Source: an uncultured Candidatus Rokubacteria bacterium
GTDB taxonomy: Bacteria > Methylomirabilota > Methylomirabilia > Rokubacteriales > CSP1-6
Length of the DNA stretch: 64,000 nucleotides
Assembly (NCBI GenBank): GCA_963771355.1
Contig: CAVYTA010000001.1
Span: forward strand, 32,001-96,000
Reading direction: 5' to 3'
Shown: piece by piece, positions 53,897-62,410 of the stretch
Layout of the letters: each line of letters opens with the position of its first letter
Position numbering within the stretch: the stretch's first letter is position 1
Position numbers and translations under genes: made by a program
The notes under the pieces: generated by a model
Told to the model about the DNA's origin: nothing
Seen by the model: the letters and a program-made list of their open reading frames with translations, nothing else
Database searches by the model: none

Positions 53897-55693
53897 TCAG
53901 ACGGGTCCGTACTGCCGTCGCAACGATTCGAGCAGCGCCTGAACGGGCCACGCCTGGCCCACGCCCACGAGCGAGGTCTGTACGTACAGCGGATCGACCA
54001 TGGTGCTGCCGATGCCGGCGCCGAGCGGGACGCTCGAAACCGCCGGTGCGAACTCCCGCCGCTCCGGACCCGGCTGCAGAACCCGTTCGAGCCCGTGGAG
54101 TCGAGGCAAGCCCGCGCCGCTGCGGCCGGGGCCGAAGGGGTAGGGGACGCACATCGATCGGATCGTGTTGAAGAGCGCGGCGACGCGCTCCTGGGTCCGG
54201 GCGCGCAGCGGCCCGAGGAAGGCGGGATGATGGGCGAGCAAGAGGGCGGCGAGACCGGTCACGTGGGGCGCCGCCATCGAGGTGCCCGACTGCGACTCGA
54301 AGCCGCCGGGGACGGTGGACACGATAGCCACGCCCGGAGCGCACACCGCCACCTCCGGGCCGATACAGCTGAAGCTCGGCGAGAAAATGCCATCCGGGGC
54401 GATCAGGCTGGGCCGCACCGTGGTGGCCTCCCACGTCTCGTCCGGATACTCGTTGAGGCGCCCGACCGCGCCGACCCCGAGCGTATAGGGCGATGACGCC
54501 GGATAGAGCACCGGGCCGCCGGAATTGCCTCCCGCCACGACGCAGGCGATCCCATGGAGCGCGGCCTCCTCGAGCTTCTGCTCGATCGCGAGCGAGCGCT
54601 GCACGCTACCTAGGCTCAGGTTGACGACGTCGATCTCGAGATCGAGGCAATAGTTCAGGGCCTCGAGGAGGCTGCTGAACCGGCCGCCCGGGAATACCTT
54701 CACCACATGGATCTCCGCCTCCGGCACGAAGCCGCGAAGCGCCTTGCCCGATTCGTCATGGGCGGCGATGATACCGGCGCAGTGCGAGCCGTGACCGACG
54801 ACGTCGTGCGTCCAGGTTTGAGCGTCGGCGCCGTTCATCAGGTCCACGCCGTGCCGGATGTGGCGAAGCAGCGAGTGGGTGGTGTCCACCCCGGAATCCA
54901 CGATAGCGATCCGCACCCCCTTACCCGTGAGTGTCTCCGGGAGTCGGTCGAGGCCCATCTGGCGCTGTCCCCACCCATACCGGAAGTTCCCCGGGAACCC
55001 GACCAGGGTCTCCTCGATGGCGCGGAGCCGGACCACGTTGACCTCGCCGTCCAGCAGCTCCGGCTCGGTGAGGTAGACATCCCAGTAGTTGCTCGGCGCG
55101 CTCGCAAACAGGGAGCGCGGGCGCTGCCCCGGCAGCGTGAGCAGGGGCAGGGTGATCTCGCCCCGCTTGTCCGTTCGTCCCTCCTGGGGGAAGCCCTCAC
55201 CGGCGAGGCTCACGCCGACATGGGCGAGCGGCTTCTCGGCGTCGCCGATCACCCGGAAGCGGATCTGGCGGGTCTCGACGCTGCCGGCATGGTTCCAGGA
55301 GGCGAGCCGCGTCGGCGCGGGGCGTGAGAGTCCGGCCGGCGTCCCGTATTCGAGCGCAGCGTCCTCCTCGAGGAGGAGCGGCGGGGGAAGCATCTGGCTG
55401 ACCAGCTCCGCACGGTCGTGATCGATTCGCACCACGTACACCTCGGTCGCCTCGTCGGGGACCAGCGAGTAGGCGGAGACCGCCCGTCGCGGGCGTAGCA
55501 CGCGCACGATGTCCAGACCCGGAAGCTGTCCGATCACGGCGCGCACGGCGCCGGCCGGCATGGGCCGTAGGCCTGCGTTGAGTGCCTGGCTTCCACGCCG
55601 CGGGGCGAGGATGAACTGCCGCTTGCCTTGCTGCAGGATTCGCGTCGCCGGCGGCGGCGTCACGCTCGGGGGCCTGATGCCTTCATCGGCCAT
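53897..55693 (-). CDS. S8 (subtilisin-like) serine peptidase without signal peptide
   Basis: Triad IVDSG, GHGSHCAG, SGTSMAAPH. Oxyanion GN. GGAGG precedes ATG 55693. Confidence 0.93.
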   Translation of the reverse strand: MADEGIRPPSVTPPPATRILQQGKRQFILAPRRGSQALNAGLRPMPAGAVRAVIGQLPGLDIVRVLRPRRAVSAYSLVPDEATEVYVVRIDHDRAELVSQMLPPPLLLEEDAALEYGTPAGLSRPAPTRLASWNHAGSVETRQIRFRVIGDAEKPLAHVGVSLAGEGFPQEGRTDKRGEITLPLLTLPGQRPRSLFASAPSNYWDVYLTEPELLDGEVNVVRLRAIEETLVGFPGNFRYGWGQRQMGLDRLPETLTGKGVRIAIVDSGVDTTHSLLRHIRHGVDLMNGADAQTWTHDVVGHGSHCAGIIAAHDESGKALRGFVPEAEIHVVKVFPGGRFSSLLEALNYCLDLEIDVVNLSLGSVQRSLAIEQKLEEAALHGIACVVAGGNSGGPVLYPASSPYTLGVGAVGRLNEYPDETWEATTVRPSLIAPDGIFSPSFSCIGPEVAVCAPGVAIVSTVPGGFESQSGTSMAAPHVTGLAALLLAHHPAFLGPLRARTQERVAALFNTIRSMCVPYPFGPGRSGAGLPRLHGLERVLQPGPERREFAPAVSSVPLGAGIGSTMVDPLYVQTSLVGVGQAWPVQALLESLRRQYGPV

Positions 55694-55730
55694 TGGGGGA
55701 TCCTCCATGGTAGACGGTGTTTCCGTTCCC

Positions 55731-55764
55731 GATGGGGCGGACGGTCCCGGCCGTCCGCCCCATC
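55731..55764. promoter_or_regulatory. 14-bp perfect intercistronic stem-loop
   Basis: GATGGGGCGGACGG-tcccgg-CCGTCCGCCCCATC, with no U-tract. Confidence 0.75.
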
Positions 55765-55792
55765 CCGCTGTCGAGCCGGTCTACGTCACGAA

Positions 55793-55821
55793 ACGCTGCA
55801 TCAGCAGGACGCTGCATCAGC
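55793..55821. repeat. 13-bp direct repeat at the stop codon of the Q/G/P-rich gene
   Basis: ACGCTGCATCAGC at 55793-55805 and 55809-55821. Confidence 0.75.
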
Positions 55822-56267
55822 CGGCGTAGGTCAGGATGCCGCGACCCGCCGCGCCGGAATACTGGGGCTGTCCCGCCCAGCCCCCGGTGGCCTGCCAGGG
55901 CGACGGCCAGAGCTGCGACTGGCCATACTGCGGCTGGCCGAACGGCGACTGCCCGAACGGCGCACTGCCCGAACGGCTGCATCTGCCCGAACTGTGGCGG
56001 CCCGAACTGGCCCGGCACATGGCCAAAGAGACTCTGCGGGGTCAAGCCGGCCAGGGGCGACCCGGCAATCTGCTGTGTGAGGCCGGCGAGCTGCGCTTGC
56101 TGAAGGCTCTGTGCCACCAGGTTCACGATCGAGCTCTGCGGGACGAGGCCGATGATCGGCACGAAGCCCGCCATCGGCGGCTGGCCGAACTGCTGGTACG
56201 GCCCGGGCTGGTGTCCGAGCGCTCCTAGGGGTGCGAACGCGTGCTGGGTGGAGGTGTCGAACATCAT
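55817..56267 (-). CDS. 149-aa Gln/Gly/Pro/Phe-rich low-complexity FG-repeat protein (+1 frameshift at 55963)
   Basis: AAAGGAG RBS. One 15-nt repeat unit (GCCCGAACGGCGACT) carries an extra C. Removing it joins MMFDTSTQH... to ...SPFGQSPFGQPQYGQ...GILTYAG*. Confidence 0.75.
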
Positions 56268-56321
56268 TCGGACTCCTTTCTGGTGTCTGGGATGAGGTAC
56301 CGGCCGACGTGGAGAGGCATC

Positions 56322-56336
56322 GCAATCCGCTTGCCA
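56322..56336 (-). promoter_or_regulatory. sigma54 (-24/-12) promoter
   Basis: TGGCAAGCGGATTGC, exact GG-N10-GC spacing, about 55 bp upstream of ATG 56267 and directly downstream of a bEBP gene. Confidence 0.85.
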
Positions 56337-56419
56337 GCTTCGGCAGACGACGGCAAGACGCTACCGACAAATGCATTTCTCGATCTGGTCGATGGGGGCG
56401 CGGATTGCCGTGCGCGGAA

Positions 56420-56512
56420 GCGGGCGCCAGAGCGCCACACGTGCGGCATCCCGAGCTCGAGAGGAGGAGCGGAAGTTCGGGAGCTTAGCGGCGGTGTGGC
56501 GGTTCCGCCCGC
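56420..56512. promoter_or_regulatory. Candidate enhancer (UAS) pair
   Basis: GTGTGGCG-N6-CGCCCGC on minus (56420-56440) and GTGTGGCG-N4-CGCCCGC on plus (56494-56512). Confidence 0.4.
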
Positions 56513-56528
56513 GGTGAGCGCCCGCGTC

Positions 56529-57530
56529 TCACTGGCGCTCGCCCGGAGAGATCCCGTGCCGCTTGGTCAGCCGATAGAGCGTGCGGCGGTGGATACCGAG
56601 GAGCTGGGCGGCGAGCTTCTTGTTCCACCCCGCTTCTTTCAGCGCCCGCCGCAAATGGCCTTTGACCACCTCTTGAAGGCTCAAGGGCGGTGCGGCGGCG
56701 GCTCCCGCCCCTTCGACGGCATCGACGAGCTTGCGCGGCAGGTCCTCAGGGGAGAGGAGGGAACTCGCGCTCAGGGCGGCGGCCTGCTCGACGGCGTGCT
56801 GGAGCTCACGGACGTTTCCAGGCCAGTCGTAGGCGACGAGCCGGGCCATGGCCTCGGGGGTGATGCGGCACGCCGGCCGGGCGTTCACGTCGGCGTAGGC
56901 TTCCAGGAAATGACGCGCGAGGAGGGGGATGTCCTCACGGCGCTCCCGCAGCGGAGGCAGGGAGATCGTCACGACGCTCAGCCGGTAAAAGAGATCCTCC
57001 CGGAACTTGCCGTCCGCGACGAGCGCGCCCAGATCCTTGTTCGTGGCGGCGATGACCCGGACGTCGACCTTGAAGCGATCGGTTCCGCCTACCCGCCGCA
57101 CCTCGCGCTCCTGGAGCACGCGCAGGAGGCGCGCCTGCACGCCGGGGCTGACCTCGCCGATCTCATCGAGGAAGCACGTCCCTCCCCCCGCCACCTCGAA
57201 GAGTCCCCGCTTGTCCGCGACGGCGCCGGTGAAGGCCCCCTTTGTATGGCCGAAGAGCTCGGTCTCCAGCAGGCTTTCCGCGAGCGCGCTGCAGTCGACG
57301 GGGACGAACGGCTGGTCGCTCCGGCGGCTCGCGGTATGGACGGCCCGCGCGATCAGCTCCTTGCCGGTGCCGGTCTCTCCCTGGATGAGGACGGTGCTCG
57401 TCGTCGGGGCCACGCGCGCGACCATCCGGTACACCTCGAGCATCGGCTCCGCGATGCCCACGATACCGTGGATCTCGCCGCTCGGATCGGTCGCCGCCGG
57501 GGCGGTCTCCGTGAACCGGGACTGGGCCAT
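56529..57530 (-). CDS. sigma54-dependent enhancer-binding protein (AAA+ plus Fis HTH), no N-terminal sensor
   Basis: GETGTGKE, ELFGHTKGAFTGA, FLDEIGE, REDLFYRL, WPGNVREL, AAQLLGIHRRTLY. AAGGAGG RBS. Only about 20 aa precede the AAA+ domain. Confidence 0.93.
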   Translation of the reverse strand: MAQSRFTETAPAATDPSGEIHGIVGIAEPMLEVYRMVARVAPTTSTVLIQGETGTGKELIARAVHTASRRSDQPFVPVDCSALAESLLETELFGHTKGAFTGAVADKRGLFEVAGGGTCFLDEIGEVSPGVQARLLRVLQEREVRRVGGTDRFKVDVRVIAATNKDLGALVADGKFREDLFYRLSVVTISLPPLRERREDIPLLARHFLEAYADVNARPACRITPEAMARLVAYDWPGNVRELQHAVEQAAALSASSLLSPEDLPRKLVDAVEGAGAAAAPPLSLQEVVKGHLRRALKEAGWNKKLAAQLLGIHRRTLYRLTKRHGISPGERQ

Positions 57531-57674
57531 CACTTCCTCCTTCGACGCGGTCGAGGGTCGGTCATTCGGGGATGTCGGTGGACGCGTGCGTTCGGAGGTG
57601 ACGACGGATCAGTGCGGACTATCGTGGCGCGGAGTTAGAGTCATTTCGGTGACGTTCGGACTCTCGACGAATTC

Positions 57675-61348: not shown

Positions 61349-62410
61349 CAGGCGTTCCTGTAGGCGGCCAGCACCGCCTGCGCCATCGCGCGGGTGGTGG
61401 CGGTGCCGCCCTGGTCGGGAGTGAGGGTCTTGCCGTCGCGGTAGACGCGGCCCACCGCGGCCTCGAGGCGCTGGGCATCGGCGCCCAGGCCCATGTGCTC
61501 GAGCATGAGCGCGGCGGAGAGAATGGTCGCGGTGGGATTGGCGATGCCGCGTCCCGCGATGTCGGGAGCGGAGCCATGGACCGACTCGAAATACGCCCAG
61601 CCGTCGTCGCCGAAGTTGCCCGAGGGCGCCAGCCCGAGCCCGCCGGCGGTCTCCGCGCCCAGGTCCGAGAGGATGTCGCCGTAGAGGTTCATGCAGAGGA
61701 CCACGTCCATGGACTTCGGGAAAGCGCACCAGGCGCCGCGCGGCGTCGTCCACGTGGAAGTGCTCGAACTCGATCCCGCTCGCCGCGCGCACCACGCGCT
61801 CGGCGATCTCCTGGAAGAGCCCGTCGGTCTGGCGCATCACGTTCGACTTGGTGACGCAGGTCACCTTGCCGGGCTTGCCCCGCGCCTTGCGCTTCTTGGC
61901 GAGATCGGCGGCGAAGCGGGCGATGCGCTCGGCGCCGCGCGGCGTGACCACCTTCACCGCGAAGCGGCCCTCGGTGCCGTACTCCTTCAGGGTCCGCCCG
62001 GTGCGGTCGCTGAGGTCGGGCATGAGCCGGACGAGATCGGCCAGCTGGCCCTCGCGCCCCGGATAGATCCCTTCGCTGTTCTCGCGGAGGAGCACATAGT
62101 CGATGCCCTCGGGATCGGCCAGCGGCGAGCGCATCCCCGGGTAGAACCGGATCGGCCGGATGCCGGCCCACGCGCTCATCTCCCAGCGAAGCCAGGACAC
62201 CACCTGCGAGGTGGCCGGACCGGCGGCGCCGAAGAGTACGCCATCCGCCTCGCGCGCGGCCCGCTTGGTTTCCTCCGGCAGCGGCGCGCCCTGTGGCGGC
62301 GTGAGAATCTTGAGCGGCAGGCCCGTGCCCATCAGGAGCTCGCAGGTGGCGTCCACCACCTCGATCCCGATGCCCTCGCCGGGCAGCGCGACGATCGTCT
62401 TCATGGCCAT
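61348..62410 (-). CDS. Isocitrate/isopropylmalate dehydrogenase family protein (+1 frameshift at about 61717)
   Basis: [17 protein letters not shown] and KSNVM, then NLYGDILSD and [12 protein letters not shown]. Confidence 0.88.

Follow-up and report, generated by a model that had tools for sequence, protein, structure and literature searches.

The window, a 64,000-nucleotide stretch of the genome of an uncultured Candidatus Rokubacteria bacterium, carries on its minus strand a gene for an uncharged protein rich in Gln, Gly and Pro, which is almost certainly real and paired with a subtilase of the S8 family. The gene (55817..56267) encodes 149 residues after read-through of a one-base error. 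It lies in a cassette whose order in Rokubacteria is a sensor-less σ54 activator, a −24/−12 box, the precursor ORF, a GC hairpin and the S8 subtilase, all on the minus strand. In the reading that we favour, and hold to be moderately probable, the ORF encodes a precursor that is cut by the paired protease after hydrophobic-x-Pro-Gln, freeing amphipathic helical peptides. The precursor–protease system is apparently undescribed.

The ORF begins with an ATG at 56267, is broken at 55963 and stops at 55819–55817, on a strand that the first-pass annotation had left unstated. The first-pass annotation had proposed a hidden 149-residue protein on the assumption that the C at 55963 is superfluous and should be verified, and comparison with contigs of public runs bears this out. 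The base is missing in 8/8 covering contigs from three runs of three studies (two contigs in X1, three in X5 and three in X6; a fourth run, X13, has no cover there), the version of the window is seen in none of the covering contigs of these runs, and the homologues are intact. The third-position GC fraction is 0.91 in the shifted frame versus 0.66 in the continuation as assembled. An isocitrate/isopropylmalate dehydrogenase-family gene in the same window (61351–62410, minus strand) is frameshifted near 61710, with Pfam Iso_dh matching residues 2–231 and 234–348 in different frames. This is probably another assembly indel, and the splitting of a housekeeping gene suggests that the assembly contains such errors. 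Given the eight contigs, the difference in GC and the split dehydrogenase, base 55963 is very likely an assembly error; a mutation private to this strain is still conceivable because the covering contigs may derive from related strains. The 194-residue ORF as assembled (55683–56267) was discarded as an artefact of the extra base. Between the genes, at 55720–55789, the public contigs of three runs omit three bases at 55721 and one at 55789. A 16-nt direct repeat is found at 55793–55824. The precursor copies L030, L031, L050 and L067 likewise appear frameshifted in or near repeat tracts, through assembly error or slippage.

With X at the break, the protein contains 26 Gln, seven FG dipeptides, one Asp and one Arg, and no Glu, Lys or Cys. 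Our recount thus reproduced the composition first reported, and all four motifs named with it (GLVPQS, NLVAQS, GLTQQ and GLTPQS) are present in the read-through protein. This composition is not due to chance, since only one of 30,007 six-frame stretches of at least 90 aa in the genome, namely this ORF, holds an 80-aa segment that has 10 or more Gln and no more than three charged residues. The genome has no paralogue of the precursor, and no signal peptide was seen on inspection. The closest intact homologues (L024, with 152 aa and a protease 97% identical to that of the window, L025, L026, L023 and L021) are 152–171 aa long. A 15-nt repeat tract coding for (P/Q)(F/Y)GQ units (55900..56016, minus strand) is variable and spacer-like; its period is 15 nt, lengthened to 16 where the break falls. 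In X6 and X13 there are contigs with a 36-nt in-frame insertion after codon 24. Together with the lengths of the homologues, this shows that the repeat number varies, as had been suggested earlier.

Upstream of the precursor is a σ54-dependent activator of 334 aa (56529..57533, minus strand), identified by Pfam as Sigma54_activat (1.9e-68, from residue 25) and HTH_8. It has the AAA+ and Fis-type HTH domains only and is without an N-terminal sensor domain. A relative with 62–94% identity adjoins the cassette in 31 of the loci L021–L103, all of them Rokubacteria-type (30 upstream and one downstream), and rpoN is present in the genome. The promoter box (56322..56336, minus strand), 69 nt before the ATG, reads TGGC-N7-TTGC, which we take to be the σ54 −24/−12 consensus. 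Of the distinct upstream regions, 27/28 of the Rokubacteria type and 0/18 of the distant type have the strict pattern, with an expectation of 0.25 over all 46 regions from dinucleotide shuffles. A putative upstream activator site (56423..56440, minus strand) contains GTGTGGC, the commonest 7-mer, found in 12 of 22 aligned upstream regions. A near-palindromic element (56366..56381, minus strand) is a possible second regulatory site and overlaps the motif TTTGTCG, present in 9/22 of these regions. The sequence also contains a ribosome-binding site at 56273..56281 (minus strand).

Between the precursor and protease genes there is a perfect GC hairpin of 14 bp (55731..55764, minus strand; z −2.8, with 4/200 shuffles as good), predicted to serve as an attenuator or RNA-stabilising element. 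Stems of at least 11 bp within 120 nt past the precursor stop were found in 46 of 59 distinct regions, against 1.03 expected from mononucleotide shuffles. The S8 subtilase that follows (53897..55708, minus strand; 603 aa, likely start 55693; Pfam S8 6.9e-38) has propeptide-like, β-rich and catalytic domains (AlphaFold mean pLDDT 79.7). The best fold match of its model is pro-subtilisin E (3whi), and the closest structures are Bacillus subtilisins. In the alignment to subtilisin NAT, the catalytic residues D271, H306, N395 and S477 are all present. An insertion of approximately 23 residues (421–443) follows the oxyanion region, and no signal peptide is evident by inspection. Around residues 45–54 (55547–55576, minus strand) there is a precursor-like motif, hydrophobic-x-P-M/L/F-small, in which Pro49 is nearly invariant; this is a possible secondary self-cleavage site. 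A complex prediction with protease residues 140–548 and precursor residues 30–101 gave a score of 0.02 and was counted neither for nor against the pairing.

The first-pass annotation had made its case depend on homologous ORFs upstream of related proteases, and these were found. Of the 83 loci collected, 63 extend 700 nt or more upstream of the protease gene, and an uncharged Q/G-rich ORF stands in this position in 61 of them. The two exceptions are L074, where the protease is truncated, and L088, where the contig is short. With this ORF detector we obtained 0/53 downstream of the proteases, 0/16 at unrelated S8 loci and 0/500 in random genome pieces. The 63 loci do not amount to 63 independent cases because many are near-copies. 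Two of 174 protease tails (P0334 and P0345) carry full repeat units of the precursor at the C-terminus, with 47.8 and 58.4 bits, and such fusions of complete units indicate that the two genes are functionally tied.

The N-terminal part of the protease was found in 4/251 genomes of the phylum, and the relatives are titled Methylomirabilota or Rokubacteria; a search of phages with this part gave no match, nor did a search of plasmids with the ordered precursor described below. The bacteria known by name to carry the ordered precursor are, among others, Noviherbaspirillum, Massilia, Duganella, Rugamonas, Bradyrhizobium and Steroidobacter; those of the protease include Polyangia, Cupriavidus, Paenibacillus and Streptomyces plasmids, and the partner ORFs were inspected for Streptomyces. 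These Streptomyces partners (L108:4709-5296 and L109:4922-5635) are Q-rich (29–38% Gln), look helical in the middle and have tails of the QFG type. Neither has the PQG/LPF ordered cores, and the proteases beside them are apparently dead. Named precursor matches are annotated as 'hypothetical'; the exceptions are a single 'glycine zipper family protein' and a small number of automatic labels that are unrelated.

Genes for export, tailoring or immunity do not recur among the clustered neighbour ORFs, for which 89 of 130 representatives were searched with Pfam; the flanks reached up to 4–5 kb and many contigs are short, so an unlinked exporter is possible. In many ordered-type loci a small ORF of 90–130 aa lies between precursor and protease (L070:3706-3978, L103:1228-1623, L096:3512-3853 and L088:342-692). 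By eye it resembles a stand-alone propeptide or I9-like inhibitor; it has no Pfam or PADLOC match and is absent from the cassette of the window. PADLOC gave only generic subtilase and weak IetS matches for the protease, with no partner of a catalogued anti-phage system, and 0 matches for three precursors and two of the small intervening ORFs.

Distant loci, both proteobacterial and other, whose proteases are 40–56% identical to that of the window, have an ordered multi-repeat polyprotein as the partner. Each unit consists of L/F-A-P-Q|G, a hydrophobic core rich in Gly whose last residues are L-P-F, and a Gln-rich spacer. Of 463 distinct cores, 290 are 44 residues long and 99 are 46. The cores contain 32% Gly with invariant Gly spacing, and the spacers contain 36% Gln and measure 9–256 aa. 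Of the 106 non-redundant units, 94 have Leu or Phe at P4, where PQ and PF belonged to the pattern with which the units were cut out. FG density is 3.5 per 100 aa in the cores versus 0.5 in the spacers. The AlphaFold model of one ordered precursor (P0209) shows separate helix-turn-helix cores, with pLDDT 79–88 in three of four; the junctions are of low confidence, there is no inter-repeat packing (pTM 0.32), and Foldseek with an ordered precursor model found no match at E≤0.001. Pfam identified Gly-zipper_OmpA in L101 (8e-9) and a weak glycine zipper in L077 (0.019), and otherwise returned nothing informative for 16 precursors. L077:2076-3563 and L078:3-704 have a second type of core, cationic, strongly amphipathic and antimicrobial-peptide-like, that alternates with the glycine-zipper cores. 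The extreme C-termini are also conserved, both in the ordered precursors (P0149–P0268), where 106 of 141 sequences carry T-[LVIM]-H, and in the Rokubacterial ones, which have a YAG/CAA-type ending; they may be recognition or targeting signals.

In a quick, midpoint-rooted tree the Rokubacterial proteases nest among those of the ordered-repeat type with SH-aLRT 94 (L022 is labelled Rokubacteria-type there although its precursor is off the contig), and the form in the window is therefore likely derived. An HMM built from the 106 non-redundant units aligns with the window protein at residues 74–112, at predicted site 2, with 19.0 bits, above 200/200 shuffles. It beats 200/200 shuffles in 20 of 26 Rokubacteria-type precursors, and nearly a full unit is retained in L028, L033, L037 and L040. 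For the Streptomyces precursor of L108, the score was equalled by 37/200 shuffles. The pattern hydrophobic-x-P-Q-[GSAT] occurs 53 times in 25/26 Rokubacteria-type sequences, versus a shuffle mean of 10 and a maximum of 21. All these shuffles preserve composition and not periodicity. The PFGQ tract of the window protein resembles the spacers of the ordered precursor P0181. From these comparisons, the window protein is likely a derived, degenerate form of the ordered precursor.

Two cleavage sites are predicted in the window protein. Site 1, LVPQ|S (residues 41–45; 56133..56147, minus strand), is kept in the form LVPQ[S/G] by the window protein and by 5/5 of the closest homologues. Site 2, LTPQ|S (residues 75–79; 56031..56045, minus strand), has its pattern retained in L024, L026 and L021 and lost in L025 and L023. 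Between them lies the predicted released peptide, an uncharged amphipathic segment of 34 residues (45–78; 56034..56135, minus strand). Its best 11-residue helical moment is 2.04, compared with averages of 1.92 for ordered cores and 1.35 for shuffled cores, and its Gly content is 9%. Since both sites are kept around this segment, two of the four motifs named earlier appear to be P-Q sites of the family. Two P-Q sites in this protein alone are marginally above chance (P about 0.05), and the C-terminal LPF boundary is missing. The earlier proposal of a multi-site protease substrate is the best-supported reading. Cleavage at P-Q in the window protein is fairly probable, and more so in the ordered relatives.

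In the mechanism we propose, the sensor-less activator would turn on the σ54 promoter and induce the operon, while the hairpin would hold precursor RNA in excess over protease RNA. The protease would activate itself in the cytoplasm by removing its own propeptide, and would then cut the window protein at LVPQ|S and LTPQ|S. In the ordered relatives, it would cut L/F-A-P-Q|G and L-P-F|x to give glycine-zipper hairpins of 44–46 residues. Flexible spacing would be the role of the Q/FG tracts. The freed peptides may enter membranes or form oligomers, as class II microcins or Cdz peptides do; their membrane action is a tentative part of the proposal. Because no exporter is linked, they would act in the producer or after lysis. 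Of all the steps, the product of the degenerate form in the window is the one of which we are least sure. At both boundaries the motif is hydrophobic-x-Pro-(Gln/Phe) followed by a small residue, and both fit known S8 specificities: the cytoplasmic S8 protease ElxP recognises (D/E)-(L/V)-X2-Gln (PMC10885120), and Rothia subtilisins cleave XPQ| and LPY| (PMC8053163).

An intact self-assembling structural protein (gel, condensate or amyloid), which the S8 protease trims, dissolves or merely binds, is a real rival and the strongest one, unlikely as it seems to us, and it is compatible with cleavage as the trigger. It takes up the prion-like idea of the first-pass annotation. All lineages, the coreless Streptomyces partners among them, share a single trait, near-zero charge with high Gln. 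FG is enriched in the Rokubacterial set (176 versus a shuffle mean of 67, and 111 versus 25 for [PQL]FG, with shuffles that preserve composition and not periodicity). Proteases without a working active site are also retained. The catalytic His or Ser is lost in 18 of 206 protease rows of a redundant set, and 16 more have a changed oxyanion Asn; these proteases belong mostly to the Rokubacterial clade, together with both Streptomyces copies, and are still full length. Full-length examples with a replaced His or Ser are L022, P0052, P0067, P0072, P0077, P0085, P0088, P0091, L055, L108 and L109, which points to pseudoproteases having formed repeatedly in Rokubacteria and Streptomyces. The alignment of Rokubacterial precursors has a mean column identity of only 30%, which is poor for a product of precise function. 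The degenerate sites, this low identity, the dead proteases and the coreless partners all favour selection for composition-driven assembly. Analogies are found in the gel-forming repeats of GerG with the Csp subtilases (PMC5241399), in amyloid-forming microcins (PMC13188072) and in the aggregates of CdzC (PMC5380434). Against self-assembly, the ordered relatives are predicted to be helical hairpins rather than β structures. Proline disfavours cross-β and amyloid structure, and the window protein contains 13% Pro. The P-Q motifs with hydrophobic P4 are selectively kept, whereas the number of FG dipeptides is unconserved (3 to 14 in 26 Rokubacteria-type precursors and 0 to 17 in distant ones). 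The description of an FG-repeat, FG-nucleoporin-like protein in the first-pass annotation therefore does not hold as the defining feature.

A prolamin-like reserve of nitrogen and carbon, that is, an abundant inert Gln-rich protein made under σ54 and later mobilised by a dedicated protease, would suit the Q/P/G/F make-up, the σ54 promoter and a hairpin fit for high precursor output, and the motifs resemble those cleaved by gluten-degrading subtilisins. We consider it improbable, since the invariant Gly spacing and fixed core length of the ordered relatives exceed the needs of storage, the cassette is patchy (4/251 genomes of the phylum), and the 18 distant upstream regions are all without the σ54 box. 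Slightly less probable still is a fresh pseudogene in this strain, with a real frameshift, or a Rokubacterial cassette that is the decaying relic of the ordered system. In its favour are the degenerate cores and the dead members among the proteases; against it, all 8 covering contigs omit base 55963, a second frameshift is found in a nearby housekeeping gene, and the promoter, RBS and hairpin are conserved. The dN/dS of the precursor is 0.21–0.22 against the three closest relatives and 0.21–0.55 in 11/11 pairs tried, which argues against decay. A selective sieve or barrier protein resembling FG nucleoporins is very improbable despite seven FG in 149 aa, as the count varies from 0 to 17 across the family, the precursor has no Pfam match and no pore scaffold gene is nearby.

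Beyond cleavage of the precursor, which we continue to favour, we would offer more speculatively an undescribed class of exporter-less peptide system spread over Proteobacteria, myxobacteria-like bacteria, Rokubacteria and Streptomyces. One cytoplasmic subtilase would cut, and perhaps cyclise head-to-tail through its insert of approximately 23 residues, a polyprotein of glycine-zipper hairpins into membrane-active or self-assembling peptides in the producer or on lysis. In Rokubacteria, it would have been rewired under a dedicated σ54 switch to yield a protein of low complexity that assembles under proteolytic control.

Database searches gave few leads. Pfam and NCBIfam matched 0 families in the ORF as assembled, Rfam gave a single unrelated weak match (E 0.48), and ESM Atlas gave unnamed clusters only at 0.85–0.91 and DUF3947 at 0.75, which are leads only. 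Six RNA runs that share 7–36% of the words of 54500–57500 were rejected as evidence for transcription of the precursor ORF. We found no published description of the precursor–subtilase pairing in a search by titles and abstracts, chiefly of the open literature, in which a mention in a genome-mining table could be missed. Standard mining for RiPPs or bacteriocins looks for tailoring enzymes or exporters, and a precursor that has only a subtilase beside it would escape it. The ordered form occurs in culturable bacteria (Duganella, Massilia and Noviherbaspirillum), which makes its product directly accessible to experiment. If the peptides are membrane-active, they would be a large untapped family; if they assemble, bacteria would provide an example of low-complexity assembly that a protease switches. 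The enzyme itself may prove useful for Pro-Gln cutting or for ligation.

Among known systems, the cyanobactins are similar in having repeated cores between recognition motifs and clustered cytoplasmic S8 proteases (PatE as the multicore precursor with PatA and PatG; PMC10885120). They differ from the system described here, which has one protease rather than two, other motifs, cores of approximately 44 aa and no heterocyclase or tailoring gene. The window protease scores 29.2 bits against TIGR03895, where the cut-off is 421, and so falls outside the PatA/PatG family. PatG carries a capping insert; the Asp–His spacing of the window protease is subtilisin-like, so this insert is absent, and the insert of approximately 23 residues after the oxyanion region is a different one. 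The cyanobactin recognition sequences G(L/V)E(A/P)S and AYDG, as given in PMC10885120, do not occur in the window protein, which has no Glu and one Asp. With the cytoplasmic S8 leader peptidases of the epilancin/ElxP type, the system shares hydrophobic P4 and Gln at P1, and some ordered precursors (P0169 and P0189) have D/E at P5; unlike those, it has no lanthionine machinery, Cys is nearly absent and each precursor has several sites. No tailoring enzyme or macrocyclase, as expected of a RiPP in the strict sense, recurred among the neighbour ORFs scanned.

Class II microcins and the Caulobacter bacteriocins CdzC/CdzD have in common with the ordered relatives their hydrophobic glycine-zipper helices, and both membrane killing and aggregation or amyloid are reported for such bacteriocins (PMC5380434, PMC13188072). 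They use type I secretion and an immunity protein, whereas here neither a linked type I exporter (C39-ABC) nor an immunity gene recurs within flanks up to 4–5 kb, maturation would be by an S8 protease from a polyprotein, and the window protein itself has no regular zipper. GerG of C. difficile with the Csp subtilases and pseudoproteases is likewise a low-complexity, gel-forming protein tied to S8 proteases; it is Asn-rich and species-specific, the available part of PMC5241399 does not describe it as a multi-site substrate, and the likeness is an analogy. With prion-like domains and FG nucleoporins, the window protein shares an uncharged Q/G/P/aromatic composition, and its low complexity with uncharged Q, G and aromatic residues is that of prion-like or amyloid proteins. 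The likeness is compositional only, since there is no family match, nor a conserved FG domain (no Pfam match) with a pore scaffold among the neighbours, and the homologues point to helical hairpins and protease motifs. The precursor clusters with a catalytically intact protease, as multicore precursors do (61/63 loci, D271/H306/N395/S477 and the fusions), and repeated cores between recognition motifs are present in the ordered relatives, whereas in the window protein they are degenerate, with two sites. The system falls outside the cyanobactins, the class II microcins and Cdz bacteriocins, and the FG nucleoporins; as we read it, it would operate as a multicore precursor served by an S8 protease of its own.
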